This document shows positions 6,792 to 27,300 of a DNA stretch of 54,454 nt, in pieces. Numbering within the stretch: the stretch's first letter is position 1; every line of letters begins with the position of its first letter. The notes under the pieces are model-generated. The model saw only the letters and a program-made list of their open reading frames with translations. It searched no databases and was not told the origin of the DNA. The position numbers were made by a program, and so were the translations under genes. The stretch comes from a virus (taxonomy: Duplodnaviria; Caudoviricetes), in the IMG/VR virus record IMGVR_UViG_3300031974_003269, positions 1 through 54,454 of that record. One strand, given 5' to 3'.

Positions 6792-6927
6792 TACACAGGT
6801 TATACATCGAATAGGCATTGTATCGCAATCGATTGGACTACTTTTTTGCGCATTTATTTGCAAAATACTAGATGTTGTGTATACATTGTTATACACACCC
6901 TAATAATAACTACACACCACATGAATA

Positions 6928-7215
6928 ATGAAAAAGAAAATTGCCCAAAAAAAGAAAGCCGTCGGTCATGCGTCAAAGGTCGAAGGTCGTGAGTCGAAGG
7001 ATATAACCTGTGCAGTAAGACTACCCCGGTCGATGTACGATGCGCTGGATAATTGCGCAAAGCTCAAGAAAACGTCTCTCTCAGACATCATCCGTGATGC
7101 TCTTGTAGCCAAAATGGATGAGGTTCAGGCAGAGGAGCGTGAGAAAATATTGAAAGAGGCTGAATACGAGGCGCGACTACGCGAGCTTGGTGTTGACCCT
7201 CGCAAAACTGCTTAA
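6928..7215 (+). CDS. Ribbon-helix-helix regulator, divergent
   Basis: AVRLPRSMYDALD...SLSDIIRDAL. Confidence 0.8.
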   Translation: MKKKIAQKKKAVGHASKVEGRESKDITCAVRLPRSMYDALDNCAKLKKTSLSDIIRDALVAKMDEVQAEEREKILKEAEYEARLRELGVDPRKTA

Positions 7216-7315
7216 CACCTTCTAGATACCTCTAAGCGCCTTAAACCGGTGTTTCCTTCGAGATGCCAATTTAAGGTTCTTTTGTGCCCGCATATTTCGA
7301 GTCGTAGGGTTCTAA

Positions 7316-7620
7316 ATGTTTCGATTTGGTTTAGTCGGGACAGAACCATTTTCATAAGTCGTTGATATTACATAATCTCGGAAGGCAATATGGTTTTATG
7401 GTTTTATTTATTATATTCTATAGAGTATATATATATTATATAGGGGGAGCAGGAATACATACGGAATACACAAACCAGACCCAAACCAAAACCAAAAACC
7501 ATAAAACCATATTTTTGTTGCAATTAATTAAAATTCAAAGGTTTATGCGTATGGTTTATGTCAAAAACGCCCTAAAATAAACCATTTTTGTTCAAAATAG
7601 AACCTTTTAGAACCTTATTC
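7316..7620. repeat. AT-rich region with AAACC/GGTTT repeats and 19-bp perfect inverted repeat; candidate replication origin
   Basis: AATATGGTTTTATGGTTTT 7387-7405 and its reverse complement at 7495-7513 flank a TATATA tract. Confidence 0.6.
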
Positions 7621-7730
7621 CATGATCATCGACCAGTCGAATTCGGGGTCATTTGTTCTGACTGATATCACCAACTTGGTGCTGTGGCATATCAAAATGT
7701 GTAGGTGCTTACCTACAAAATTCTGCTCGA

Positions 7731-7979
7731 TCACTTTTTCGTCTTCCTTTTTCGAGGAAAGCTACGATTCTTACTTTTTGAGACTACTCTGAGATTCTTT
7801 GACCGGTTATCAGCAGTGTTTCGATTCTTATGATCGACATCTTTGCCGTCGCCCTTTCGAGCACGGCCTGCTTTGACCATTTTCGACCTGGCAGCATTGC
7901 GCTGAGCCCTTCGCTTCTTTTGCTTTGGCTTTGCGTGGTATGTTTTATACTCACGCTTATAATTACGTGGTGCTGGCAT
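7731..7979 (-). CDS. Small HNH-like protein
   Basis: RNYKREY...GDGKDVDHK...N...NLRVVS...NRS. Confidence 0.75.
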   Translation of the reverse strand: MPAPRNYKREYKTYHAKPKQKKRRAQRNAARSKMVKAGRARKGDGKDVDHKNRNTADNRSKNLRVVSKSKNRSFPRKRKTKK

Positions 7980-8089
7980 ACTATTGATCATCAGTCAACA
8001 ATCAGCAGTTATCAACCGAATGTACGTACAACGTATAAGATTTCAAATATTCTTGCGCTATCGGTAACCATGTATCTTCATTGCGTTTA

Positions 8090-8311
8090 ATGGAATCGGC
8101 CCAAAAAAAGAGACGTAAAGTCATACAAATATCGGTGACTATGGATGAAGAACTCAAGCACAAGTACGCCCGCCTTGCTGTTGAGCTCGACCTATCCTTC
8201 AGTCAATTAGTACGTTACGCACTTCGCCGTGTAGCCGACGGCGTTGAGGATTTGAGGAGCATTGAAAAGCATAACAGAAATCAAAACGATGGACACGATA
8301 TGTCTACCTAA
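8090..8311 (+). CDS. Ribbon-helix-helix regulator
   Basis: QISVTMDEELK...LSFSQLVRYAL. Confidence 0.8.
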   Translation: MESAQKKRRKVIQISVTMDEELKHKYARLAVELDLSFSQLVRYALRRVADGVEDLRSIEKHNRNQNDGHDMST

Positions 8312-8323
8312 ACCCTTATAAAT

Positions 8324-8353
8324 AAAAAAGGGCCGAGGCTGCAACCTCGACCC
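8324..8353 (-). terminator. Hairpin plus U-tract on minus strand; CTGCAA-loop hairpin on plus strand
   Basis: Minus strand reads GGGTCGAGG-TTGCAG-CCTCGGCCC-TTTTTT. Confidence 0.5.
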
Positions 8354-8378
8354 AAAGTAAATAATAACAACACACCAT

Positions 8379-8543
8379 ATGAAGCTATCGATTACTATTC
8401 CTACAAATGTACGTAATGTGCTGTCCGTCAATCGGATTCAGCATTTTTTATCGAGGCGGCCCGCTAGCTACTATCATTCAGACATTATTATAGCTAAGTT
8501 ACGACCGTCCTTTTCCCAATTTTATAAATTGGAAGAGGTGTAA
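8379..8543 (+). CDS. Possible 54-aa peptide
   Basis: ATG directly after ACACACCA leader, but overlaps a promoter and structured leader. Confidence 0.3.
   Translation: MKLSITIPTNVRNVLSVNRIQHFLSRRPASYYHSDIIIAKLRPSFSQFYKLEEV
8446..8481 (+). promoter_or_regulatory. Early promoter copy 1 (TTTTAT-17-TACTAT)
   Basis: GCCCGCTAGC(A)TACTATCATTCAG shared with 17463-17486. Confidence 0.6.
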
Positions 8544-8588
8544 ACCTCTTAGGACGGTCATGCGTGGTGCATGACTGCCATTCGTAAC
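8498..8588 (+). ncRNA. Structured 5' leader (three-way junction)
   Basis: 8503-8511/8551-8559 stem encloses two hairpins, one with a GTAA (GNRA) loop; outer pair 8498-8504/8582-8588. Confidence 0.55.
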
Positions 8589-8606
8589 ACTCAACTACTT
8601 ATTACT

Positions 8607-8894
8607 ATGTCTGTATCTTCTCTATTACTCGCATGCGGTTTCACTTCTGCCGAACATGTCAAAAACACTATCGAAGTCATCGAGCGTACAGCTACCATCG
8701 ACACTCTTCGCGAAGTAGCTTTACGAAACTTAGAAGCTAACTGCATTACTGGTAGCTTCGGCGGTAAAGCTGACTTTCTAGCTACCGTGCCAACCTTCCT
8801 ACCTTACGGTTGTAAGCAATCAGTACCTCTCGGTTCTGGTCTCGATGACGACGGCACTTTCGCAAACCATGACGATTATATCGCTCATGACTAA
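8607..8894 (+). CDS. Hypothetical early protein
   Basis: First ORF after promoter and leader. Confidence 0.65.
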   Translation: MSVSSLLLACGFTSAEHVKNTIEVIERTATIDTLREVALRNLEANCITGSFGGKADFLATVPTFLPYGCKQSVPLGSGLDDDGTFANHDDYIAHD

Positions 8895-8909
8895 CTTTCA
8901 ACACTTTGC

Positions 8910-9323
8910 ATTGTCCTGATCAGATGATGCGGGGACGCTCGTACACAGGTTGCACTGACAGCCTGCGAGCACAAGTTCTGAGTTCTCTTAGCAGAGGCAC
9001 CCTCGAGCTATTGCTGCAATGGGGTGGTCGGGCACGACACTTAGAGGTTTCAGATCAGTATCTTCCATTGCACTCTCATCGCCGAGCTTATGCAAAGCAT
9101 GCGAAGCACCTAGTACAACAGCCATGTGGCAGAGGAACGGCGGACGCATCCCGTAGCGGGGTCGAGAGGTACGGTCATAGGCACTAAACTATGACGCTAA
9201 ATAACTTGTTATTCAGTTTTCCGTTGGAGGTACGGCGAGCGATCGCTTACTCCTCCCAGCAATGTCGCATAAAAGAAGATACTGTTGCTGGATGGCAGGC
9301 TACCAAGCTCCTGCCCCCCACCA
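8910..9323 (+). ncRNA. Large structured non-coding RNA, family not recognised
   Basis: Nested long-range helices (9056-9065/9275-9284, 9066-9071/9259-9264, 9073-9077/9164-9168, 9080-9084/9138-9142) plus many hairpins; G-U pairs favour plus strand. Confidence 0.65.
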
Positions 9324-9340
9324 CTTTCTTCGGTGTTACT

Positions 9341-9368
9341 TGACCTAAGCATGTCACAAAACTGCTTA
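9341..9368 (+). ncRNA. H-type pseudoknot leader element, copy 1
   Basis: TGAC/GTCA and TAAGCA/TGCTTA stems; covaries with copy 2. Confidence 0.7.
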
Positions 9369-9413
9369 TTACTTTTTACACCGAGTCACAACAACACACC
9401 AACCACTATCACT

Positions 9414-9689
9414 ATGGAAACAATACGACCACATAACTGGGTATCAGCTGCTCAATTATTACAGAATACAGAACCCGAAACAGAGTATCCGCTAAAACTA
9501 GACGACGAAGATATCAGCGGTCTCGATGTAGCCTTCGATCTACACAGCCGTTTCGACGCAGCACGAATGGGACACGAAGTATTCGACAACACCATCGACT
9601 GGATACTCGACGGCAAACTCGTACTTATCGACTCCAAAAACGAAAAAGTATGCTGCTGCCCAATGAAATTCAAAAACATCAAACTTTAA
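9414..9689 (+). CDS. Hypothetical early protein
   Basis: METIRPHNW start after ACACACCA leader. Confidence 0.7.
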   Translation: METIRPHNWVSAAQLLQNTEPETEYPLKLDDEDISGLDVAFDLHSRFDAARMGHEVFDNTIDWILDGKLVLIDSKNEKVCCCPMKFKNIKL

Positions 9690-9699
9690 TTTACGCATC

Positions 9700-9993
9700 A
9701 TGAACTGGCATAAAGATACAAACTACTACGGAGAACCTTACGACTTCCGAGGCAAACCAAGACCTATGGACTGGCGAGACATTTTCACACTCGAAGACAC
9801 ACTAAAAAATGTCCGCAAACAGATCAGGCTACTTACAAAATACATTAACTACAAAGCCAATCTCGGTATACAACCAGCAGGTCCGTTAGTAGAAATCCGT
9901 AACAACCTACGCAAAGAAATGAGCTCTTTAGCAACACAAATTAAAAAAGCACGATACGAAGCGTCATCAGTAGAAACAACAGATGACTTTTAA
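9700..9993 (+). CDS. Hypothetical early protein
   Basis: Operon packing and cassette codon usage. Confidence 0.7.
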   Translation: MNWHKDTNYYGEPYDFRGKPRPMDWRDIFTLEDTLKNVRKQIRLLTKYINYKANLGIQPAGPLVEIRNNLRKEMSSLATQIKKARYEASSVETTDDF

Positions 9994-10022
9994 TCAACAA
10001 CACAACAACACAACAACACACC
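9991..10022 (+). repeat. TAATCAACAACAC... intergenic leader repeat (second copy 10248-10280)
   Basis: CAACAACA units ending in ACACACC before ATG. Confidence 0.7.
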
Positions 10023-10025
10023 GAC

Positions 10026-10250
10026 ATGAAAATTGAAAGCATGCAAGTCAGCATCATTAAAACTAACAAACGAGGCGTTAAACAACAACTCTCCGTATGC
10101 ATAAACGACCAATCAACAAACGCAAACCGTTGGGCTATGCGTGAAATGATGCGATGCATAAATCACAACTGCAAATGGCCTGATCTTCACCGACTAGGAA
10201 AAGTATTCGTAAAACTAACATACCCAAAACCTAGCAAATACTGGGACTAA
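10026..10250 (+). CDS. Hypothetical early protein
   Basis: Flanked by leader repeats. Confidence 0.7.
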   Translation: MKIESMQVSIIKTNKRGVKQQLSVCINDQSTNANRWAMREMMRCINHNCKWPDLHRLGKVFVKLTYPKPSKYWD

Positions 10251-10282
10251 TCAACAACACAACAACACACCAACACACCACA

Positions 10283-10405
10283 ATGAACCTACTACTCAGC
10301 ATAATATCAATCGTACTATGGACTTCAATTTTCATAACTTGGCTAAGCATCTTCGCCGTTATGACTTACGAAATATTCTTCAGCTCTAACGATTACGATC
10401 AATGA
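10283..10405 (+). CDS. Small membrane protein (40 aa)
   Basis: Manual translation MNLLLSIISIVLWTSIFITWLSIFAVMTYEIFF...; ATGA overlap with next gene. Confidence 0.6.
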   Translation: MNLLLSIISIVLWTSIFITWLSIFAVMTYEIFFSSNDYDQ

Positions 10406-10980
10406 TCAATTACTTGCAACCTCACGACTACCAACGCTCTGTATCAGAACTATTAGAATTCTTGCTCTGGTGCACTTGCACTGCAGGCAAATCATCTAAA
10501 ACTATCACACCTCGATTCAATGATCTAATCGCTAACAACTCAGCAAAAAATGTCGTCGTATCTCACGGTAACCATATCCGCGGATTACTGCGTAAATACG
10601 GTATCGGTCAATACGAACGACTAACAAAATGCTGGCAACAAATCGGTAGAGGTAGCGTTGACAATATCAAATGCAGTAGCGGTAGTTTTCTAAAACATGC
10701 ACCTCGAGATCATCTTACATTAATACACGGTTTAGGTCTCAAAACAGCATCGTTCTTCATACAATGCACAAGACCACATGAAGATGTAGCTGTTCTCGAT
10801 GTACATATACTTAGATGGCTACAACAAGAGTTCCCTAAATACCCAGTTTCGACTCAGACACCTCAGTGCGAACACGAATACGCACGACTGGAAGCAATGT
10901 TTGTAGGTGCTTCAGCCGTGCTAAAACTAACTCCAGCAGAACTTGACCTACAAATATGGAAACAAAGTTCTCAAAACTAA
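10402..10980 (+). CDS. HhH-GPD superfamily DNA glycosylase/AP lyase, Ogg2-like
   Basis: IHGLGLKTASFF (HhH plus Lys), VAVLDVHILRWL (Asp), ELDLQIW. Confidence 0.85.
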   Translation: MINYLQPHDYQRSVSELLEFLLWCTCTAGKSSKTITPRFNDLIANNSAKNVVVSHGNHIRGLLRKYGIGQYERLTKCWQQIGRGSVDNIKCSSGSFLKHAPRDHLTLIHGLGLKTASFFIQCTRPHEDVAVLDVHILRWLQQEFPKYPVSTQTPQCEHEYARLEAMFVGASAVLKLTPAELDLQIWKQSSQN

Positions 10981-11001
10981 TAACCAAAAACAACACACCA
11001 A

Positions 11002-11376
11002 ATGCTAAACAGACAAAAACTACTACAGTTCATTAAATCTCTACGCGGTCAGATCTTTCAAGTATGCTGGATCAAAAAAGACGGTACACATAGATGTGCT
11101 AATGTACGACTAGGCGTCCACACTAAACGCAAAGGTAACGGCAAAAGCCCAGCTAAATCAGATAACAGTTACATTACTGTCTATCTCATGTGGTCAATGG
11201 ATGGCGACACTTTCAAAGCTGAAAAAGGTTACCGACTCCTTAATCTTGATACAATTACCAGTATCCAAGCTAAAGGATTACATTACGAAATACACCCCGA
11301 ACCAATTGTATCATCAATTGATCTATCGCTCTCGCATGAAGAACAGCCAAACAATGTCGTCGCTCTCTCGGCCTAG
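11002..11376 (+). CDS. SH3/WYL-like beta-barrel phage protein
   Basis: F.V..IKKDGT.R...GYR..NLDTI pattern. Confidence 0.65.
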   Translation: MLNRQKLLQFIKSLRGQIFQVCWIKKDGTHRCANVRLGVHTKRKGNGKSPAKSDNSYITVYLMWSMDGDTFKAEKGYRLLNLDTITSIQAKGLHYEIHPEPIVSSIDLSLSHEEQPNNVVALSA

Positions 11377-11581
11377 TACAAAACACCGCCGATTCTTCTA
11401 TCACTACAACAAAATCAAGAAGTGCTTAACCGTTCACTTCGCAAACAAATGTCTACTAACGGATAACATCACTGTCTTAGTTCCTTCAGAATCTAAAGAC
11501 AACAAATCACAACCGCACAAAACCATTCAAGGTTGGTGCACAAATATCAATCATACAAAACAACACACCATAATATCATGA
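11354..11581 (+). CDS. Conserved phage hypothetical protein
   Basis: RRFFYHYNK...TVHF...C...QP pattern. Confidence 0.65.
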   Translation: MSSLSRPSTKHRRFFYHYNKIKKCLTVHFANKCLLTDNITVLVPSESKDNKSQPHKTIQGWCTNINHTKQHTIIS

Positions 11582-12303
11582 CTTATATACTATCAGGAGC
11601 AAACGAAGTAACATGGGAACAACTCAAATCAATACCAACACCAAAAGCAAAAGGTCGGTGGCACCCAGTCACTCACAAAACTGTTGCCAGTCACATCATT
11701 GGACTCACACAACAACGCGGTCACACCATCAACGAAATTCGTTACGGTATCGACAAATACAACGACATGTTCGGTTACATGCGTCTAAACAACACAAGTG
11801 CAATCGGTAACAATGCAGACAGCGTTCAACAAGTAGTCGGCTTCCGTAACAGCCACAACAAACGATTCTCAGTAAGTGCTGTTGCCGGTTCACAAGTTAT
11901 GGTATGCAGTAACTTACAGTTTCGAGGAGAGCACGGTATGCGTCGTAAACATACCACACATGTTATGCGTGACTTAGGTAATCGCATAAACGACATGCTC
12001 AACGACGCTTTCGGCGAATGGGAAGATACAGTCAAATCATACACTAAATATTCGCTAACACCACTATCAAGCAAAGACGCTGACCATCTTATCATGCGTT
12101 CTGCTAAAGCTGGTGCTATCAACCCATCTGATGTACTCAAAGTCGAACACGAGTTTTACAACCCAACTCATGACGATTTTGCAGATCACAATGCCTGGTC
12201 GCTATTCAATGCTACTACAGAAATTCTTAAGCGTGTACCTACTCAACTTCAGCAAAAGACCATCAAGCTACACAAAGTGTACGATGAGTTCTGCACTGCT
12301 TGA
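11578..12303 (+). CDS. DUF932-like protein
   Basis: HPVTH, GFRNSHNK, VMVCSNL.F, RKHT, AWSLFNATTE. Confidence 0.75.
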   Translation: MTYILSGANEVTWEQLKSIPTPKAKGRWHPVTHKTVASHIIGLTQQRGHTINEIRYGIDKYNDMFGYMRLNNTSAIGNNADSVQQVVGFRNSHNKRFSVSAVAGSQVMVCSNLQFRGEHGMRRKHTTHVMRDLGNRINDMLNDAFGEWEDTVKSYTKYSLTPLSSKDADHLIMRSAKAGAINPSDVLKVEHEFYNPTHDDFADHNAWSLFNATTEILKRVPTQLQQKTIKLHKVYDEFCTA

Positions 12304-12512
12304 ACTATAGTGAAGCTGTAAAGATACTCTGTAACAAATCAAAATACGATAAATCAGAACATCGTCGTGCGTTAGACTTTCTAAAACGCCACAAACAAGT
12401 AAGCCGCTGCCAATACTGTGGTTCTATCAAACACAACACCAACGCAACGCCTTGTTTCCGCTGTCTAACACATCACGCGCATAATCTACACAAACACTAT
12501 GACTTACACTAA
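12300..12512 (+). CDS. Small Zn-finger protein
   Basis: CQYC...CFRC. Confidence 0.5.
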   Translation: MNYSEAVKILCNKSKYDKSEHRRALDFLKRHKQVSRCQYCGSIKHNTNATPCFRCLTHHAHNLHKHYDLH

Positions 12513-13272
12513 CATCAAAAACAAACCGTTACGATGGAGCGTGGGCAATGCAAAGCTATCAAAACGCATTATTCACTTCTCACTGCCTTCAGGTCACTCG
12601 TGTCCAGCTGCACATCTATGCTTGTCAAAAGCTGACATGACCGACGGCACTATCACTGACGGCGAACATACTGAGTACAGATGTTATGCAGCAACGCAAG
12701 AAGCTGCTTACCCATCACTGCGTAAAATACGATGGGATAACTTCCTCGAACTCAAAAACTGTTCACGCAAAAAGATATTCACGAAACTTCGTGCATCTCT
12801 AGCACCATTGCATGCACAGTATATGCTCGACCACGATCAGCGTCCTATAATTCGTGCACATGTTGGCGGTGACTTCTTCAACGAAGCTTACTTCCTAGCA
12901 TGGCTCGACTTAGCTAACGAATACCATCCAACACAATTCTACGCGTACACAAAACGCTTAGACTTATGGGTCAAACACATAGACAATATACCAGACAACT
13001 TCGAGCTTAACGCATCTCGCGGTGGTAAACACGACCACCTAATAGATAAACATAATCTCAAGTCAGCTACTGTAGTATACAGTCATGAACAAGCTAAACG
13101 ACTCAATCTCGAATTAGATCACGACGATTCACATGCATACAATGCAACAGGATCATTCGCTCAACTAATTCACGGCACTCAACCCAAAGGATCTGCTGCT
13201 AGCAAAGCAATATCCAAACTCAGAACAAAATATGGCTGCGTCGGACATCGTGCAAGTACCCCGTCTGTGTAA
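12499..13272 (+). CDS. GP88-family phage protein
   Basis: GNAKL, FSLPSGHSCP, CYA, RAHVGGDFF, FYAYTK motifs. Confidence 0.75.
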   Translation: MTYTNIKNKPLRWSVGNAKLSKRIIHFSLPSGHSCPAAHLCLSKADMTDGTITDGEHTEYRCYAATQEAAYPSLRKIRWDNFLELKNCSRKKIFTKLRASLAPLHAQYMLDHDQRPIIRAHVGGDFFNEAYFLAWLDLANEYHPTQFYAYTKRLDLWVKHIDNIPDNFELNASRGGKHDHLIDKHNLKSATVVYSHEQAKRLNLELDHDDSHAYNATGSFAQLIHGTQPKGSAASKAISKLRTKYGCVGHRASTPSV

Positions 13273-13903
13273 ACAGCGTATAACAAAATTCTTCGCAGGT
13301 ATAACACCTCGCAAGAAACAGCAATACATAGACGACTGGTCACAACTAACACCTCGTAGTAATCACAGTAAACTAAACCGTTGGCGTTTCGCATACTGCA
13401 CAGTGCATACGCCCTGGCTTCGTAGCTGTGAACAATACGATCTAATCAAAAACAAAAACAAAACATCAACATATGACACACTAGTTCAACTACTCAAACA
13501 AACATCAGGTGGCATGTTCACTATCAAAGCTACAGGTATCAATCACCTACAAGAGCTTTGGTCTAAAGATCCATCTATGTTCGAACCAACCTCAGATTGG
13601 CAATCATGGCGAGACAACCTTGCATCAAAGCTAAAGAAGCTAGGCATGGCAAAAACATCATTCGCTATCGAAATGCTGCATCCGCTAAACGCAAACTTGA
13701 TATGCATTGATCGACACATGTTCAAAGCATTCGGATGGCACCGTGTAGACGACTCAGCATCTGTTAAACAATACAGATACTACGAAGACTACTGGCTTGA
13801 TATGTCAGCAGCTTTCAATGTCTCACCCGTTATAGCACGCAACATATTCTGGGACAAAATTCAAAAACAACCTAACTCACTATACTGGGCAAAATACCTA
13901 TAA
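13232..13903 (+). CDS. Second HhH-GPD-like DNA glycosylase
   Basis: KKLGMAKTSFAIEML...ICIDRHM, Y..YE..W. Confidence 0.7.
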   Translation: MAASDIVQVPRLCKQRITKFFAGITPRKKQQYIDDWSQLTPRSNHSKLNRWRFAYCTVHTPWLRSCEQYDLIKNKNKTSTYDTLVQLLKQTSGGMFTIKATGINHLQELWSKDPSMFEPTSDWQSWRDNLASKLKKLGMAKTSFAIEMLHPLNANLICIDRHMFKAFGWHRVDDSASVKQYRYYEDYWLDMSAAFNVSPVIARNIFWDKIQKQPNSLYWAKYL

Positions 13904-13908
13904 CTATC

Positions 13909-14874
13909 ATGAACAATATCGATTACGCTCTCGGTCCAAATTCAATATTCGTATACGACCGAATCAACAATAAACCTATCGAAGTCACAAGCGATCGCGT
14001 TAACTACAAACCTCTTCTTGAAGCTCTACAACGAGGTGTTGAAGAAGAAGTTCTCGAACTACTTGACGAAACGCATGTACTTAATGTTATCAGCGACGGC
14101 AAAGTTGTTGTTAAAAACAACTCTGTATTCTACAACGGTAGAGAACTGCATACAGCAGAAGCTAAAAAGCTAACTGATCTAGTATCAGAAGGTGTAACAG
14201 ACATATCTCGCTGGTGCCGTTTCATCGAACGACTGCAAAATAATCCATCGTACCACTGTCGCAATCAAGCATACAACTTCATTGCACATACAGGTATGCC
14301 AATGACTGCCGATGGCAAACTCATCGGTTACAAAGGTGTACGAGATGATTACCACGACAAATACAGTGGCAAATTCAGTAACCATGTAGGTGCAGAACTA
14401 TCAATGCATCGATCAGATGTTGACGACAATCCTAACAACGGATGCTCATCTGGCTTCCATGTAGGTTCTTACGAATACGCTAACGACTGGGCATCAAGTG
14501 ACGGCAAACTAATGATTGTCGAGTACTGTCCATCAGACATCGTATCAGTGCCTGACGAATCCGGTTACGGTAAACTGCGTGTATGCAAATACAAAGTTAT
14601 ATCTGAGCATGTTAACCGTACTAAACTAAACGACGGTGCATACGGTAACGCACAATTCAACGACAGCGACCTATTCGATTACATAGACAATCGTACAGAT
14701 CAAATAGATGAATTAGGCAGTCTCTACTACAAAGATCTAAAGCAAGAATTTCCAACAGTAACAATGCATGATGTTAAAGACGCTATAGAAATGCATAGCG
14801 AATACCATCTCGATTGTACATGGGACGGCTCTGCAAACGATTACATAATCAGTATGCAATCTCTTCCGTGCTAG
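13909..14874 (+). CDS. rIIB: rIIB-like protein
   Basis: L..NPS, GYKGVR.DY.D..SG...N, M.R..VDDN...CSSGFHVG, DIVSVP, KLRVCKY. Confidence 0.85.
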   Translation: MNNIDYALGPNSIFVYDRINNKPIEVTSDRVNYKPLLEALQRGVEEEVLELLDETHVLNVISDGKVVVKNNSVFYNGRELHTAEAKKLTDLVSEGVTDISRWCRFIERLQNNPSYHCRNQAYNFIAHTGMPMTADGKLIGYKGVRDDYHDKYSGKFSNHVGAELSMHRSDVDDNPNNGCSSGFHVGSYEYANDWASSDGKLMIVEYCPSDIVSVPDESGYGKLRVCKYKVISEHVNRTKLNDGAYGNAQFNDSDLFDYIDNRTDQIDELGSLYYKDLKQEFPTVTMHDVKDAIEMHSEYHLDCTWDGSANDYIISMQSLPC

Positions 14875-14909
14875 GTGCTACACTAGTGCGGTTTTCATAA
14901 TAGTTAAGT

Positions 14910-14937
14910 TGACCTGAGCATGTCACAAAACTGCTCA
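14910..14937 (+). ncRNA. H-type pseudoknot leader element, copy 2
   Basis: TGAC/GTCA and TGAGCA/TGCTCA stems. Confidence 0.7.
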
Positions 14938-14969
14938 TATTAACTACAACACAGCAAAACATATATACT

Positions 14970-17051
14970 ATGAAGCTAGAACAAAATACATCACAACACA
15001 CCACAACTATCACAAAAGCAGCCGACTTCGGCATAAACGAAAATGATCTATCTCACATCATGGGCATTCTCCGCTCACAAATATATTCTGACAAACTCAT
15101 GGCAGTCATCCGCGAGTATTCTACCAATGCTACTGATGCTAACATCGAAGCCGGTCGCCCAGATACTCCTATATGCGTCCACTTACCTACAATCGCCGAT
15201 CCTTACATAGGTTTCCGCGACTTCGGTGTAGGTCTGTCAGAAGATGATGTTACACAGCTGTATGTCAAATACGGTGCATCAACAAAGCGTAACTCTAATG
15301 ACTACACAGGTTGCTTAGGTATCGGTTGCAAAGCAGGCTTTGCTTACGGTGACAACTTCCAGGTCATTACTCATCACGGCAGATACAGTAAAACATGGCT
15401 TGCTCGTATCGACGAAACCAAACGCGGTACTATCAGTCTTGTACATACAACTAACCACCACACACCTGTTAATACTGGTACAGAAGTTCGTGTATCAATA
15501 CGCAAAAATGACATAGAATCATGCATTAACAAAGCTAAACAACTGTTTACTTACTGGCGTGTACAACCAACATGCAATCTAGAGTTAGACAAACCAAAAT
15601 ACCACGCAGAATCAGATGACTGGGCAATACTAGATCTACGCGAACAAAGTTATGACCGCAGAGCATACTACAACTCAGCAGTCATTATGGGTAACATTGT
15701 ATATCCAATCAACCCACGCATGATCAAAACAAGTGACCTACCCGCATCTCTACTTGATTCATCTGCAGTTCTACTCCGTGCACCTGTCGGTTCATTAGAC
15801 ATCGCAGCTAACCGAGAATCATTAGAATACACTGACAGAACATGCGATTCAATCATTGCAATGTGTAACAACATGATTGCTGATCTTATACTCAATGTAA
15901 CAAACGCTGTAACCAAAGCACCTACTAGACTTAAAGCTAGTATGAATGCACATATTTACAGTCATTGCTTCAACTATAACATCAGTAGCAAACTTGTAAC
16001 CTCAGCTAAATGGCAAGGTCAACCACTGCTCGATGTTGTTGGCTTTCCAGAACATGGTGTATGCAAACACTCTAAGCATAAATCATGGCGAGCAAGCGGT
16101 GATGATGTATGGCGTAACAAACGCGACAAAGATATACGCAATATGAAAATCGACGCTAACAGTTACTTATGTGTATTCAATGACAATCAATACAATGACG
16201 CTAATGCAACTCGTCGTGTGCGTACTCTGCAATTGCAAAACAACGACGATCCAAATCATTCGTACTATGTCATACCAATGTCTAAACTTGATCAAATTAC
16301 ACCTACATTAACAAGCGATGACTACATTGACTTAGACAAAGTAGAACCACTCAAGCCTAACCGCACAACTATCACAACAAACAACGGTACAAAAAGCAAA
16401 AGTGTTCGTATCAATGTGTGTAAACTGCAACCTAACACGCTTAAATCATCAAGACTAAGTGCTGAATGCGAACCAACAATTGATCCTACACACAAAGTCT
16501 ATGTCTATGTACCACTAGATCGATTCGATTGGGTAGGCAAACCTGATGCGTTAGAAGAACTAGATGCTATCTATGATGCATTGCACACAATGCTAGGCTA
16601 TCGCCCAACAATCAACGGTGTCAAAAAACATTACATCAAAAAATTAGATGACCAATGGATGACACTAGACGCGTTCTACCTCAAAGTATTCACTGACTAT
16701 CGCAAATCAATACCTCATGTTGAAGATATACTACTAGCAACATCAGCATGTCACCACTACCACTGGTCACACGATATGCTTTCTTTGCTAGAACAATGCG
16801 ACAATCCTACAGTCTCAAAAGTAGCTAAAATACTGCTCATTCGTGACACTAATGTACATCACGACATCAAAAAGATATGCAAAGTAGGTTACTTACTTCA
16901 TGCAATTAAACGGACTGACTGGCTCAAAGATCAATGGTCAATCATAACAAACAAATACAAATTGTTATCAGGTATAAATTACTTGTCATATCCAATATCA
17001 GATACAACTGAGCAAGATTTCATTAACGACATCAACAAACTGTTAGCATGA
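14970..17051 (+). CDS. rIIA: rIIA-like protein with GHKL/Hsp90-type ATPase domain
   Basis: IYSDK.AVIREYSTNA.DA, RDFGVGLS, YGASTK, G.LGIG.K..FAY, NRESLEY. Confidence 0.88.
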   Translation: MKLEQNTSQHTTTITKAADFGINENDLSHIMGILRSQIYSDKLMAVIREYSTNATDANIEAGRPDTPICVHLPTIADPYIGFRDFGVGLSEDDVTQLYVKYGASTKRNSNDYTGCLGIGCKAGFAYGDNFQVITHHGRYSKTWLARIDETKRGTISLVHTTNHHTPVNTGTEVRVSIRKNDIESCINKAKQLFTYWRVQPTCNLELDKPKYHAESDDWAILDLREQSYDRRAYYNSAVIMGNIVYPINPRMIKTSDLPASLLDSSAVLLRAPVGSLDIAANRESLEYTDRTCDSIIAMCNNMIADLILNVTNAVTKAPTRLKASMNAHIYSHCFNYNISSKLVTSAKWQGQPLLDVVGFPEHGVCKHSKHKSWRASGDDVWRNKRDKDIRNMKIDANSYLCVFNDNQYNDANATRRVRTLQLQNNDDPNHSYYVIPMSKLDQITPTLTSDDYIDLDKVEPLKPNRTTITTNNGTKSKSVRINVCKLQPNTLKSSRLSAECEPTIDPTHKVYVYVPLDRFDWVGKPDALEELDAIYDALHTMLGYRPTINGVKKHYIKKLDDQWMTLDAFYLKVFTDYRKSIPHVEDILLATSACHHYHWSHDMLSLLEQCDNPTVSKVAKILLIRDTNVHHDIKKICKVGYLLHAIKRTDWLKDQWSIITNKYKLLSGINYLSYPISDTTEQDFINDINKLLA

Positions 17052-17404
17052 ACACACCAATACCAGTACACATCAAATCCCACCGCGGTATCAAACAAAA
17101 TCAAATTGTAAAAGATTACGAAATACCGCTTGTCAAAACATCACTGCGTACATGGGAACTCCCCAACAACGCAATAACAATATCAGGCGGAAGCGGTGTA
17201 ATCAGCTACAGATACACATACGACACAACGCGATCACAACACAGCAACATGGGTTGGTCTCGATATGCCAACGTTACTGTATACGGCAAAGACTTCGATA
17301 CATTCGAATACTCTGGCGTAATACACACACTAGAACGACACATACAGTTCATGGACACAATCAGACAAATTCATCCCATTATCAAATCCATATTCGATAA
17401 ATAA
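17048..17404 (+). CDS. Hypothetical protein
   Basis: ATGA overlap with rIIA. Confidence 0.65.
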   Translation: MNTPIPVHIKSHRGIKQNQIVKDYEIPLVKTSLRTWELPNNAITISGGSGVISYRYTYDTTRSQHSNMGWSRYANVTVYGKDFDTFEYSGVIHTLERHIQFMDTIRQIHPIIKSIFDK

Positions 17405-17410
17405 CCTCTC

Positions 17411-17452
17411 AGCCACAGGCATGTATACTCTGCATGTCTGTGGCTTTTTTTT
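17411..17452 (+). terminator. Intrinsic terminator
   Basis: AGCCACAGGCATG...CATGTCTGTGGCT followed by T tract. Confidence 0.85.
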
Positions 17453-17486
17453 GCTCCGAGTCGCCCGCTAGCATACTATCATTCAG
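17451..17486 (+). promoter_or_regulatory. Early promoter copy 2 (TTGCTC-17-TACTAT)
   Basis: Shares spacer, -10 and downstream bases with 8459-8481. Confidence 0.65.
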
Positions 17487-17530
17487 TTACCATTTCTTTT
17501 TCAAACTCGGGTTTCCTAATTCTATTCAGT

Positions 17531-17902
17531 ATGGCACTGAATAAATCAGATTCCGAGTTCTCTCCTGATGGTGAGGACACCAACAGTAACGCCGTATCTT
17601 CCAAACTCATTGCTGAGCTTGGTGAAGATACTCAACACTCTGCCGTCGTGGACGGCATCCGTGAGCATATAAGCCAGTCAGGGACTGCTTACATGCTTAT
17701 GGACTTTACCTTCGAGAATACGAAGAGCAACTCTCCGCTTCTCAAAGGCAAGTCAGCCACCGCTTACCTTGACAGGTTCGGTGGCAAAAATGCGATCGCC
17801 AAAGGCTCTCGCATCGCAGTCAATCTCGGGATTGACAAAGACGGTTACCCCAGCATAGGTGCTGGCGGTAAACGCCTTAACAAACTACTTCCTAGTAAGT
17901 AG
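17531..17902 (+). CDS. Hypothetical protein in its own transcription unit
   Basis: Bounded by own promoter and terminator. Confidence 0.7.
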   Translation: MALNKSDSEFSPDGEDTNSNAVSSKLIAELGEDTQHSAVVDGIREHISQSGTAYMLMDFTFENTKSNSPLLKGKSATAYLDRFGGKNAIAKGSRIAVNLGIDKDGYPSIGAGGKRLNKLLPSK

Positions 17903-17908
17903 CTTGTT

Positions 17909-17941
17909 AGCCTCTGCCCTTACGGGTAGAGGCTTTTTTTT
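17909..17941 (+). terminator. Intrinsic terminator
   Basis: AGCCTCTGCCC-TTAC-GGGTAGAGGCT followed by T tract. Confidence 0.85.
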
Positions 17942-17994
17942 GCTCCGAGTCGGTTGCCTTACCCTCACTGACGCACTAAATTCTGCACTCAGAC

Positions 17995-18220
17995 TCTCAG
18001 GGATCAAGGGACTCGCACACTCATCCCTTCATCTCCTGACCCGTGGCTGGATTCCGAATCCAGTGCGTCCGCTCACGCAAGTCATTGCCTCGTAGCTAGT
18101 TACAATGTTGCTCGGTGCCTTCTGCACCGACATTGCACCTATTCGCGATTGCAACTGGCAATAGCAGGCCCCCCACATCCCGCGGGGTACCAACTATCAC
18201 TACCACTCGCAATCGCTATC
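17995..18220 (-). ncRNA. Candidate antisense structured RNA
   Basis: Series of hairpins; in the 18145-18216 stem the plus-strand A-C mismatches become G-U pairs on the minus strand. Confidence 0.45.
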
Positions 18221-18354
18221 AATCACAGAAATAAAAAAAGAAATCTTTTGGAAGGCGTTCCTGCCGGATAAATCATGCAGATTGATGTGTAATCTATGAA
18301 AACACTGATTTTTGAGCATTAAGCGAGGTTTTTGCCTCTTTTAACCGGCCGACC

Positions 18355-18390
18355 CAACCGCTAGCCCCCGGGGTACCAAAAATGTACATT
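18355..18390 (+). promoter_or_regulatory. Late-type promoter upstream of TerS (CAACCGC-TAGCCC-17-TACATT)
   Basis: Same geometry as other late promoters. Confidence 0.55.
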
Positions 18391-24392: not shown

Positions 24393-27300
24393 ATGCCTGA
24401 CAGTTTCCCAGGTTTAGATTTAGGGCAAAAAGACTACAGCCCAGAGGATGAAGACGACATTCTCGGGCTGAATAAGTTTACTAGCAAACCAAGCCCTAGA
24501 AAATTCCAGCCATTTGGCGGTTCTTTGCAGCAGCAAGCTCCAACATTTCAGGAGCCTCAGCAGATAGAGCAACCTCAACAGACAAACGAGTACTACAATG
24601 TTTTTGACGATGCTCAGCTAGGACAGTTCGAGCAGTTAGACAAGATGGCTTCTCTGTCTTCTAAGTATAAATCTAGTGCCGATAAGGTCTACAAGCTTAG
24701 GGAGAAGAACCTAGAAGACTTCGTAGCTAACGATCTAAAACCTTTTTATGACGAGTACGGAGCAGGATTCGATTACAAAGATAATTACGATCAATATATT
24801 TCCGAGCTGCAGGATTTAGAAAAGCAGTATTTTAAACAAAGTAAAAAAGAAGACGGCTTTTTCAGTAGCGAAAGTGATGCTCGAGCTAGCGCTAATCAAA
24901 TGCTTAGTAAGTTTAAAAAATTCTCAGGTAGAAATGGACTACTAGATAGATTTAACCGTTTTAAATCCGAGCTAGATAGATACGGCAAGATCAGAGATGC
25001 CGCGGCTGCGGAGCAAGCTAAGTACGAAGAAGTTTTATTAAGTATCCCGATGCAGGAACGTCTTGCGTTGGAAGAAGGATTAAAAGGTCCTAAAACACGT
25101 AAGTCAAAAAAGCAGGTAAATGAAGCGTTGGACTCGATGCAATTCGAGAAACCTATGTATAATTACTACGACGGTTTGTTAAACGTCGATAAGGTTGACC
25201 CACGCTACAAACCTAAAGTTGATTTCGAGGACGGAAGAACCGCTACACGCCAAGCTGAAAGAATGGATATGGCGTATCGCGGTAAGTTCGAAGGACTACT
25301 ATCACGCCGTGACCAAGTTCTTAAAGATCGTCAGATGCGCGATCGAGGAGTGTTCTTTTCTAGTAACGGTACCGTAGACGGAAGACCGTTTCAACTGTCC
25401 CGAGAAGATGTCGACATCCTCGATTTGAATGACATTCGTAAGACAGGAATTAAAAACTACAAAGGCAAACCTATAGATGAAGCTATTGCAAGTTTAGGAG
25501 GCGAGGAAAGACTTAAAGTAGCTGAATTATTGCAAGCAGTCTTTACCGCATATAGTAATAGAGAAGACCGTCAGATAGCTTACTTTAACAACGGTAAGAC
25601 CGACGCCGATAAAGAAGCTATGGAAAAAGCTAACGAGGCGTTTGAAGGTATTCTTCTACATGCAGCCGATAAAGGTCTTACCGACGAAATAGTTAAAAGC
25701 AATGAAAGCCAAGGTTTTCTAAGTTCAATCACTTCATTTTTTGGGAACGCTATTAAGCGTGGCTGGCACACAAGCGAGTTGGCTGAGTATGCCGACGATT
25801 TCTTTTTGAATAATATGGATGAGACTGCTTTCGAGCAGTTTATTGCCGCAGCGGAGAATTTAGAGCAAGTACCAACCAGTAAATCTTTGCAGAACTTCAT
25901 GGGGTCAGACAGCGACGGTGTTATGGAATCGCTTGGCAACCTTCTGTTTGAAAATCCCGCGGCCATACCTGAGATGTTCGTAGAGTCTCTGGCTTCCTTC
26001 TTACCTACTTATGTAAAGACTGCCCCAGCTACACTAGGTGCTTCTTTTGCAGCCGGCCTACCTTTTGGTGGAGTTCCTGGGGGCATGACAGGTTTAGGTG
26101 TAGGTGCTCGTTTAAACTGGGGTATAGCTTCCGCAGCTATCGAGTATTCTTCGACTATACTAGAGGAAATGAAGGGGTTAGGTATTGATTATAAAAACCC
26201 GAGAGTTTTTATGGCGGCCTGGAATAACGAAGCTACTCGAAACGCGGTCGTCGAAAAAGCGGAGAAGCGTGGTTTAGCTATCGGTACATTAGACGCAATC
26301 GCCGGTATGATGGGAAGCCGAGTTGCAAACGTGCTTCATCACACAGGTAATGCAGCTAAAGGCGGTAAGCTACTAGACTCAAAAGCTTGGAACAGATCTA
26401 AGCTTACAACTCCTAGATTCACCAAGTTTCAACGCGGTAGAAACGCGGCTTTAGAAATCGGAACCGACAGTACTTTAGGAACTTCCGGCGAACTTATCGC
26501 ACAGCTTTTAACTAGAGAAGAGGGTGAGAAGTTAGATTACAACTCTCTCATTGCTGAAGGTATTATTGGCGTAGGTCCTGGTCTTTTAGGAGCAGTAAAC
26601 GAAGTCCGAGGATCTGCCGACGTATCCAATGTACCTTTTGATTTATCAGAAGAGCAGGAAACAGCCACAGGTACTACTGGTAAGATCAGTGCAGCTGGTT
26701 TTAATAACCAGTACAACACTTTCAAGGATGCTCAATCAGCAACAGCGTTTATTATCGAACAAGCTGATGTAACAGGCGACCAGCAAAATGCTTTAGTCGA
26801 CATATTTTCTCGATTGTACGACGCAAACAGTAAAGAGATGTCGAATCTTAAAATTGTTGTAGCTGAACGCACTCCTTTCAAGGACACAGAAAACCCCGCT
26901 TCTTTTCATAACATCGAAGGTCAGAGGGTGATATTTCTTAACAAAAACGCCGTTGGGACAAATCCAGTAGGAGCTTTCTTACACGAGTCCGGACATTTAG
27001 CTCGTTTGCTCATGGGTATAGAAGATTCTAATCTTCTAGGCATGTACGATGCTCTCGGGCAACAAGGCAAACAAGATGCTGCTGCTCAGTACATCACCAA
27101 AAACCACGGCCAGAAATACTCTAAATTAGACGAAACCACCCAAAAACAAGTAGACAAACACTTAGCTAATACAAGACCTACTGAGTTAGCTGATGAGTGG
27201 TTTGCTTATCAATTTGCAAGAGTGCTAACAGGTAATACTGCTGAAAAATCAGTACAGACTCCTTTGCAACAGTTTTTAAAGTCTACTCTTCGACCACTAT

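Follow-up and report, generated by a model that had tools for sequence, protein, structure and literature searches.

The window analyzed here is the whole of a linear IMG/VR virus record (54,454 bp, estimated completeness 81%), and in its early region 445 nt without a credible gene extend from the stop codon of a small gene at 8571–8894 to a promoter-like motif at 9340. The small gene (plus strand), which lies outside the RNA element described below, encodes a protein of 107 aa and has a codon-usage log-ratio of 0.52; a single homologue of the protein was found (73% identity; encoded on a 3,487-nt Logan contig), none occurs in the 13 related genomes, and its alignment against metagenome contigs, in which two patterns were used, gave 0 matches. 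Upstream of the gene, at 8459–8481 on the plus strand, lies the promoter-like motif (a), GCCCGCTAGCTACTATCATTCAG, preceded by a run of T and present in a second copy at 17465–17487. In its extended form, the motif consists of the T-run followed by ..CGAG..GCCCGCTAGC(A)TACTATCATTCAG, at 8440–8481 and 17444–17487, and its 18-nt core recurs in the related genomes G001 (twice), G002, G003, and G014, with a variant in G004. The second promoter-like motif (b), TTGACCTAAGCATGTCACAAAACTGCT, covers 27 nt at 9340–9366 on the plus strand and forms the downstream limit of the element; it is repeated with 1 mismatch at 14909, ahead of rIIA, occurs in one copy each in G002, G003, G005, and G008, and is found within other flanks in contigs of the metagenome runs X4 and X11. 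No terminator-like site was detected on the plus strand between motif (a) and position 9340, the 3′ end of the element included, which suggests co-transcription; motif (a), a putative promoter, is likely to be the start of a transcription unit holding both the 107-aa gene and the RNA element, and the RNA would accordingly be made together with this gene from position 8459.

The rest of the genome comprises a leftward replication arm with a helicase and a rightward arm that carries, next to small early genes, rIIA, terminase, portal, a 3,859-aa protein containing an LPD38 domain, and the major capsid protein; ARAGORN detected 0 tRNA genes in the window. Near-identical DNA is present in seawater, marine, and estuary metagenome runs. 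The leaders ahead of the start codons have no Shine-Dalgarno sequence, a possible hint of a host among the Bacteroidota. Among GenBank phages, no cultured relative was found with the DNA of positions 8500–9800 or with the N-terminal 1000 aa of the giant protein as queries, and the sole match of the capsid protein is to a Paracoccus phage (28% identity). In IMG/VR, the capsid protein identifies at least 137 related contigs at 66–85% identity, several of which are complete and 68–71 kb long, and the source lineage is one of abundant, uncultured marine phages of ~69 kb. IMG/VR searches with two other proteins gave 1 locus in an unrelated jumbo phage (Ogg-like protein) and 0 matches (rIIA). The window also contains an AT-rich repeat region near the element (7350–7620), which may be an origin, a further ORF-free region that is conserved, and a small gene extraordinarily rich in hairpins; in view of the last two, RNA structure may be a wider theme in this phage group. 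No similarity beyond 9-mers was found between the gap at 8895–9339 and a second gap at 17903–18385.

The gap and its predicted fold

Positions 8895–9339 make up the second most GC-rich of 244 segments of 445 nt (GC 0.524). The gap has a GC content of 0.52 and a GC skew of ~0, and the flanking genes have a GC content of 0.38–0.46 with a strongly negative skew, the neighboring genes on the plus strand being rich in C and A. With a codon-usage log-ratio trained on 16 long genes, the flanking genes reach 0.35–0.54 and the ORFs of the gap, on either strand, −0.16 to 0.07 (−0.11 for ORF 8906–9187, 0.07 for ORF 9191–9343), in agreement with the initial annotation, which had described a GC-richer gap without the codon signature of the surrounding cassette. 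No Pfam or PHROG family was assigned to the eight ORF fragments of the gap, ORF 8906–9187 among them, and two zinc-finger matches of E ~0.1 lie far under the curated cut-offs. Among 5.8 billion predicted proteins, none has a word in common with ORF 8906–9187 (ORF93), and there is not even an entry for the ORF itself, which means that gene callers skipped it even on the source contig; the peptide patterns of ORF93 returned 0 matches in the viral set, 0 in JGI metagenome contigs, and 0 in GTDB genomes. The homologous stretch of the diverged phage G004, described below, contains no ORF of 40 aa or longer on either strand, so that the frame of ORF93 is not open there, and the codon-type conservation that had been named as a possible objection to a non-coding RNA was not seen. 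In a diverged SRA contig, two 1-nt deletions fall within ORF 9191–9343. As regards the reading frame, one of the properties by which a structured non-coding RNA is defined, no conserved frame was found, and the element at 8898–9335 is non-coding.

On the plus strand, the element begins with a conserved 5′ flank, CAACACTTT (8899–8907), identical in G004. It is followed in the MFE fold by hairpin A (8908–8930; 8 bp, loop CUGAUCA) and by GGGG at 8931–8934, the 5′ strand of a helix termed P1, whose 3′ strand, CCCC at 9316–9319, is located inside a run of six C. P1 would join both ends of the molecule around hairpin B (8937–8970; GCUCG/CGAGC and CAGGUUG/CAGCCUG), domain C (8974–9048), domain D (9049–9292), and hairpin E (9294–9315), the last of which abuts the 3′ strand of P1 and may be stacked on it. 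Domain C is composed of a closing helix and three hairpins, C1 (8984–8997, loop UAGC), C2 (8998–9026), and C3 (9027–9038). Domain D is closed by a long-range helix, 9049–9065/9275–9292, and contains hairpins at 9148–9162, 9174–9195, 9196–9217, and 9226–9256, the last with the GNRA loop GCGA, together with a block, TGTCGCATAA (9263–9272), that is conserved in the MAFFT alignment with G004.

Much of domain D had been recognized from the sequence in the initial annotation, as a second domain closed by the perfect 10-bp helix CAGTATCTTC/GAAGATACTG. This helix is present at 9056–9065/9275–9284, one base away from where it had been placed; the four hairpins listed above were all recovered in the MFE fold, and GAGGTACGG does occur twice, at 9166 and 9227. 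The helices 9066–9071/9259–9264, 9073–9077/9164–9168, and 9080–9084/9138–9142 are also part of the MFE fold, and to that extent were borne out, although the inner fold of this domain stays at background in the covariance model R2 discussed below. Two other proposals had to be abandoned. The helix 8912–8921/9026–9034, thought to close a first domain, amounts to ~5 pairs only, is absent from all the predicted folds, and shows no conservation; and the supposed CCACCA end is a C-run forming the 3′ strand of the molecule-closing helix with GGGG at 8931–8934, G004 having no CCA there.

Taken alone, the folding energy of this copy is a weak argument for a structured RNA. The 451-nt region folds at −152.7 kcal/mol, with z −1.55 on the plus strand and 8 of 100 shuffles equally good, a value close to the shuffle-like folding that the initial annotation would have counted against itself, and with z −0.68 on the minus strand. 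The first domain of that annotation gives z −1.61; the second gives z −2.99 on the plus strand and −2.73 on the minus strand, its borders having been picked at the helix after the fact. In a plus-strand scan of 244 segments, the region ranks 4 by raw energy and 55 after regression on GC content and skew, and the folding energy of this copy is fully explained by these two properties; folding beyond chance is only weakly supported from this copy alone. The adjoining segment 8482–8894 folds with z −5.5, and transcripts downstream of motif (a) give z −1.2 to −9.5 at all seven sites in six genomes.

Comparison with a diverged phage

Thirteen related records of 27–71 kb were taken whole via the capsid gene, making 14 genomes together with the present phage (G000). 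A homologue of the element was found in one of the 13 only, G004 (70,907 bp; capsid protein 66% identical), where blastn aligned G004:26757–26798 with 8934–8975 of the window (81% over 42 nt, E 4e-5); the motif of the element is thus present in 2 of the 14 genomes. A pattern scan of IMG/VR returned G004 alone. With an nhmmer profile and a covariance model, each built from the two sequences, no further member was obtained among 264 loci, 80 HNH-linked loci, or 46 loci including the 13 genomes; the HNH-linked set was drawn from at least 600 stretches and 565 relatives, and among the matches listed 0 of the 80 kept carry the element. In GTDB genomes, a pattern scan gave 115 matches, about our estimate for chance, none of which extends past the pattern in nhmmer. 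GenBank phages, IMG/VR, JGI metagenome contigs, and GTDB genomes gave no relative in direct searches with the region, the ORF translation, or the neighbors, these collections having been searched by exact-word methods, which miss diverged RNA. The 56 IMG/VR loci containing the 15-mer GGTCGAGAGGTACGG are all chance matches by blastn. The idea that the element is a piece of a host RNA gene carried as attP was dropped, as GTDB genomes contain no match. The homologue set therefore consists of two diverged sequences.

In G004, the element (locus L139, ~1452–1900) follows the first small gene downstream of the conserved HNH gene and a variant of motif (a), as it does here, so that it occupies the same genomic position in both phages. 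No early protein encoded at 8,100–18,300 of the window, from the HNH gene to the terS-like gene, matches G004 in blastp at 1e-4, and the 107-, 91-, 97-, and 123-aa proteins are absent from all 13 relatives. The element is the only item besides the promoter-like motif that the two phages have in common across an early region of ~10 kb. The two copies are ~50% diverged and collinear along their full length in the MAFFT alignment, sharing CAACACTTT, the 42 nt of hairpin B, TAGC loops, ATTGCAC, TAGCGG, GGTAC, TAGGCA, and TGTCGCATAA. Compared with 300 dinucleotide shuffles, the alignment score reaches z 8.2 for hairpin A, P1, and hairpin B together and z 4.2 for domain D with the 3′ end; for domain C it is not significant (z 1.5), and three control alignments gave z −0.9 to −1.7. 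Both the structure of the element and blocks of its sequence are thus conserved in a much diverged phage in which all the surrounding early genes differ. Its retention amid unrelated early genes argues for strong selection on the RNA, in a region that has been seen as a store of small accessory proteins.

The G004 element folds with z −3.70 on the plus strand (0 of 100 shuffles as good) and z −1.00 on the minus strand, and the MFE folds calculated independently for the two phages have the same architecture: hairpin A, then P1 enclosing hairpin B, domain C with C1, C2, and C3, domain D, and hairpin E. P1 is GGGG/CCCC here and GGAACAG/CUGUUCC in G004, encloses 381 and 383 nt, respectively, and in both phages begins just before AC-GCUCG and ends just past hairpin E. 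At the position of hairpin A, G004 has a hairpin with UGAUC in its loop, and at that of hairpin E it has GUGG/CCAC, likewise abutting the 3′ strand of its P1. Hairpin B, the most conserved piece of the element, shows two compensatory pairs in its inner stem. All helices of domain C are kept, the closing helix being AGUUCUGAGU/ACUUAGAGGU here and AACUAU/AUAGUU in G004, and the spans are closely similar for domain C (55 versus 58) and C2 (17 versus 17), with 209 versus 228 for domain D. The long-range helix of domain D, which includes the perfect 10 bp here, is replaced in G004 by AAUCAGAAAAUA/UGUUUUCUGAUU, a closing helix of 12 bp and other sequence that encloses 228 nt.

It is this comparative evidence that decides the case, and an objective test of it was made with a covariance model, R1, built from the sequence of this window and its MFE fold only (8935–9050; 116 nt, 39 pairs). 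R1 matches G004 over its full length with 44.4 bits (E 5.7e-10), the best background match in 57 kb on both strands being 10.6 bits; the sequence-only nhmmer search of G004 gives 16.4 bits and covers model positions 1–62 only. In the resulting alignment (A6), which was fitted to the model and hence leans towards pairing, 94.8% of the cells are paired and 15 of the 39 pairs are changed on both sides and still paired. With the pairing partner slid by 1–3 columns, 0–2 such pairs are left, and shuffles give 7.5 ± 1.9, with 0 of 500 reaching the observed number. Eleven of the 15 compensatory pairs are in helices 3–7, that is, in domain C without significant sequence similarity, and G.U pairs are kept in both sequences. 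Outside the core, hairpin 9226–9256 (D4) retains nine pairs, five of them compensatory, with a GNRA loop that is GCGA here and GAGA in G004, and hairpin 9148–9162 retains its stem with two of three pairs compensatory. Compensatory changes thus occur in B and C (15 of 39 pairs) and in D4 (5 of 9), on the basis of two sequences and a model-fitted alignment. R1 matches the plus strand only, and the folding z is stronger on the plus strand in both phages; the structure is specific to this strand. We regard the 116-nt core of B and C as well supported for a comparison of two diverged sequences.

The interior of domain D is less clear. The model R2 of the second domain (9053–9290, 71 pairs) scores 10.9 bits against G004 and 12.5 bits at a random place in the window. 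When the whole MFE fold is projected on a sequence-only alignment, G004 has standard pairs at only 70 of 133 positions, compared with 34–43% in slid controls, and among the pairs changed on one side 15 of 57 are still paired. The background score of R2 and the poor projection make the inner fold given here a tentative one, and several helices predicted from the single sequence are probably wrong: helix 9080–9093/9129–9142 probably is, with 2 of 11 pairs kept, and helix 9174–9195 possibly is.

Variation among strains was followed in a 1,311-nt contig of run X4, which has 14 differences from the window: one in the upstream non-coding sequence, five in gene 8571–8894, three in the 445-nt gap, and five in the next gene. 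All five differences in gene 8571–8894 are at third codon positions by our count, and the flanking genes together have 10 differences in ~590 nt, versus the three in the gap. Of these three, 8912 T>C turns a U.G pair of hairpin A into C-G, 9043 A>G turns a U-A pair in the closing helix of domain C into U.G, and the one at 9251 falls in an internal loop; one of them is at a first codon position of a candidate ORF and would replace Cys with Arg. The strain differences are consistent with the structure, though far too few for a test. A more diverged contig from X4 (record 20, 9134–9283) has 21 differences and two 1-nt deletions in 150 nt.

Known RNA families and alternative explanations

Neither the whole window at the gathering score nor positions 8700–9500 on both strands at E ≤ 10 gave any match in Rfam 15, which we take to include ROOL, GOLLD, OLE, raiA, HEARO, IMES, RNase P, tmRNA, 6S, pRNA, group I and II introns, and small ribozymes. 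The statement in the initial annotation that signatures of RNase P, tmRNA, and group I and II introns are missing is thereby upheld, as is its view of the element as an unrecognized RNA by the Rfam comparison that it had proposed. RNase P RNA and tmRNA do resemble the element in their size of 350–430 nt, in having their 5′ and 3′ ends brought together by a helix, and in their multi-way junctions; they differ in that no model matches and in that the C-rich 3′ end of the element is not conserved in G004. A tmRNA- or tRNA-like molecule with a CCA end was rejected (ARAGORN 0; the C-run paired with GGGG as P1; no CCA in G004). A group I or II intron was likewise set aside, the element following a stop codon and the flanking ORFs having no homologues that span them, with no Rfam intron match. 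Further candidates that were dropped are a retron msr–msd, with no RT domain in the nine neighboring ORFs scanned; a MITE-like element, present as a single copy in the window and with a 10-bp inverted repeat that is internal and of other sequence in G004; and CACTTTC as a punctuation signal, which is not clearly enriched (8 on the plus and 2 on the minus strand in 54 kb).

The packaging RNA (pRNA) of phage phi29 is expressed from an early promoter near a genome end and is less than half the size of the element. It resembles the element as a structured RNA encoded by a phage, and acts as RNA; the element differs from it in having no Rfam match and in being more than twice its size. Since the element occurs in only 2 of 14 related genomes with shared packaging genes, an essential role in the motor is excluded. 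RNA also serves phages in counter-defense, as RNA anti-CRISPRs that mimic repeats, as pseudo-ToxI antitoxin mimics, and as tRNAs directed against anticodon nucleases. Action of tRNA against retron defense is reported in 10.1101/2023.03.15.532788. Like the element, the RNAs of counter-defense are accessory and do not code for protein, have a patchy distribution, and lie among early genes. However, they are short repeats or tRNAs copying a known host RNA, whereas the element resembles no known RNA (ARAGORN 0, Rfam 0) and has no internal repeats except the 9-mer occurring twice. The closest parallels are ROOL and GOLLD, the large "ornate" RNAs of phages and prophages, which are described as having no known function (PMC12286853). 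They are similar to the element in being large, multi-domain, structured, phage-carried, seemingly protein-free, and without assigned function, and different in length, many GOLLD RNAs exceeding 800 nt compared with ~430 nt for the element. Different too is the setting, among early accessory genes in a marine phage that looks lytic and has no tRNA genes in the window, as is the lack of an Rfam match. The element is a new family, of two diverged members, within this loose kind of large phage-borne RNAs.

That a conserved structured RNA element exists at this locus is, in our judgment, quite probable, and we consider it somewhat better than an even bet that ~8898–9335 of the plus strand encodes an undescribed structured non-coding RNA of ~430 nt. 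The initial annotation had proposed an unrecognized multidomain non-coding RNA of ~420 nt; the diverged homologue with compensatory changes, the strand asymmetry, the unconserved ORF, and the absence of an Rfam match favor this proposal, while the folding energy lends it nothing. The most serious competing explanation, rather unlikely in our estimate, is that the element acts in cis as part of an mRNA, either as a structured 3′ UTR protecting against exonucleases or as a leader or processing platform, and has no function in trans. In its favor are the lack of a terminator or recognizable promoter between gene 8571–8894 and the element, and the generally structured RNA downstream of motif (a) (7 of 7 sites in 6 genomes). 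However, the genes upstream and downstream are unrelated in the two carriers, so that the element is not tied to one message, and its length of ~430 nt, unpaired conserved blocks, end-joining helix, and kept GNRA loop exceed what a 3′ stabilizer needs. A mobile or selfish sequence, that is, an intron-like ribozyme without an ORF or a MITE-like insertion with the 10-bp inverted repeat at its borders, landed between genes and conserved by spreading rather than by serving the phage, seems distinctly improbable. Its patchy occurrence in 2 of 14 related genomes, a composition foreign to the surroundings, short ACTTTC-like words at both borders in both phages, and a free-standing HNH gene 1 kb off are features that one would expect of such a sequence; but no second copy was found in the window or in any collection searched, no intron or ribozyme of Rfam matches at E ≤ 10, no gene is interrupted by the element, relatives without it have the HNH gene all the same, CACTTTC is not clearly enriched, and the copies are ~50% diverged, yet at the same locus.

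About as improbable is a signal at the DNA level, such as a site of single-strand initiation, a replication or recombination site, or a protein-binding region, in which the folding would be that of DNA or irrelevant. The inverted repeats of the second domain fold on both strands (z −2.99 and −2.73) and the AT-rich repeats at 7350–7620, a possible origin, are nearby; against this, R1 matches the plus strand only, G.U pairs are kept, the minus strand of G004 folds with z −1.0, and the element contains neither iterons nor direct repeats. We hold it to be very improbable that the gap has no function, being a decaying foreign remnant or a spacer with the helices that any sequence of 52% GC would give. 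An MFE z of −1.55, the absence of an outlier after the GC regression, and the lack of homologues in most collections would fit such a remnant, but not a homologue kept in a phage with no early protein in common, 15 compensatory pairs, a covariance-model E of 6e-10, and a number of strain differences lower than that of the flanking genes. Practically negligible, finally, is a protein-coding gene, whether ORF 8906–9187 (93 aa, TTG start) or ORF 9191–9343: the frames are indeed open over 93 and 50 codons, but their log-ratios are −0.11 and 0.07, they have neither family nor homologue, the frame is closed in G004, a strain SNP changes Cys to Arg, and the relative has 1-nt deletions.

A possible role in trans

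Returning to the structured non-coding RNA that we prefer, we suggest that it would be an accessory RNA of a hypervariable early region, carried by 2 of 14 related genomes, and that it may act in trans as a stably folded molecule binding a protein or a ligand. Several features fit an RNA of defined shape that is recognized by something: the element is independent of the neighboring genes, a helix joins its ends, the GNRA loop is kept, and blocks of unpaired sequence are conserved. The patchy, accessory spread among early genes is the pattern of counter-defense or host takeover, for which reason we favor, while holding it weakly, a role in which the RNA captures a host protein as a decoy or sponge. 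Tentatively, then, it would sequester or mimic a host factor or a component of defense. An equally tentative suggestion is that the element represents a new class of large phage RNAs working alone, be it as a decoy of immune or RNA-processing proteins, a self-assembling particle of the ROOL/GOLLD type, or a ribozyme. The initial annotation had named a sponge, an anti-defense decoy, or a ribozyme as possible roles and proposed very early expression; the element would lie downstream of motif (a), a putative promoter, and of one small gene.

If this is true, marine phages carry an exchangeable "RNA gene" in the slot where their relatives carry small anti-defense proteins. If confirmed, the element would offer a compact target of ~430 nt with a well-supported core of 116 nt. 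Few large structured RNAs of unassigned function have been described, and new biology has tended to follow from every class added to them.

Promoter-like motifs and the folding of downstream transcripts

The promoter-like motifs fall into two families, each represented by two copies in the window and both kept in relatives: motif (a), at 8440–8481 and 17444–17487, and motif (b), at 9340–9366 and 14909–14935, the latter being found with different flanks in contigs from two sequencing runs. The 400 nt 3′ of motif (a) fold with z-scores from −1.2 to −9.5 at each of the seven sites tested, which are distributed over six genomes. In the window, the transcript part 8482–8894, made up of a 57-nt leader hairpin (8503–8559) and the small gene at 8571–8894, gives z-scores of −5.54 on the + strand and −3.20 on the − strand; this part, lying upstream of the putative structured RNA element (~8898–9335), is itself more structured than the element.

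Hairpin chain and ORF-free gap upstream of the terS-like gene

At 17520–17940, roughly 12 near-perfect hairpins form a chain that spans a small gene (17531–17902; 123 aa; codon-usage log-ratio, 0.49), for whose product no Pfam or PHROG family was found, nor a homologue in any of the 13 related genomes. Folding of this stretch yields an MFE of −172.2 (z, −9.4) on the + strand and −203.1 (z, −14.75) on the − strand, the latter equaled by none of 100 shuffles, with 68–75% of the bases paired, a signal far more extreme than that of the RNA element at ~8898–9335. The unit comes with a motif (a) copy of its own and is flanked on both sides by + strand terminators.

A second GC-rich gap without ORFs, at 17935–18290, is located immediately upstream of the terS-like gene, and its DNA sequence is conserved in six of the 13 related genomes. 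It matches two of them (G001 and G003) at ~70% over 320–350 nt, and its portion 18169–18257 matches four (G002, G005, G008, and G014) at ~90%. Alongside a long block that is invariant, the gap holds a hairpin that covaries (~18047–18063), and it folds with an MFE z-score of −3.48. It may represent another conserved RNA, or alternatively serve the late operon as its regulatory or packaging region.

Giant protein and HNH endonuclease

The 3,859-aa protein encoded at 24393–35972 has a C-terminal LPD38 domain as its sole Pfam match exceeding the curated cut-off. Its counterpart in G004, a relative that carries a homologue of the RNA element, is a longer ORF (39219–55874), sharing only 26% identity over 688 aa. 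The free-standing HNH endonuclease gene (7731–7991, − strand), which has at least 565 relatives in IMG/VR, is conserved at 75–97% in 6 of the 13 related genomes, and the genes beyond it all turn over between relatives.

Divergent gene arms and start-codon leaders

The divergent gene arms are separated by an AT-rich region (7350–7620; 31% GC) that holds a perfect 19-nt inverted repeat (7387–7405/7495–7513), AAACCA-type repeats, and an AT palindrome, and that may serve as an origin or, alternatively, as a divergent control region. Leaders preceding the start codons within 6900–11004 are A/C-rich (e.g., AACAACACACCA..ATG), and none contains a Shine–Dalgarno sequence. These leaders give a hint about the host alone, which may not use Shine–Dalgarno pairing.
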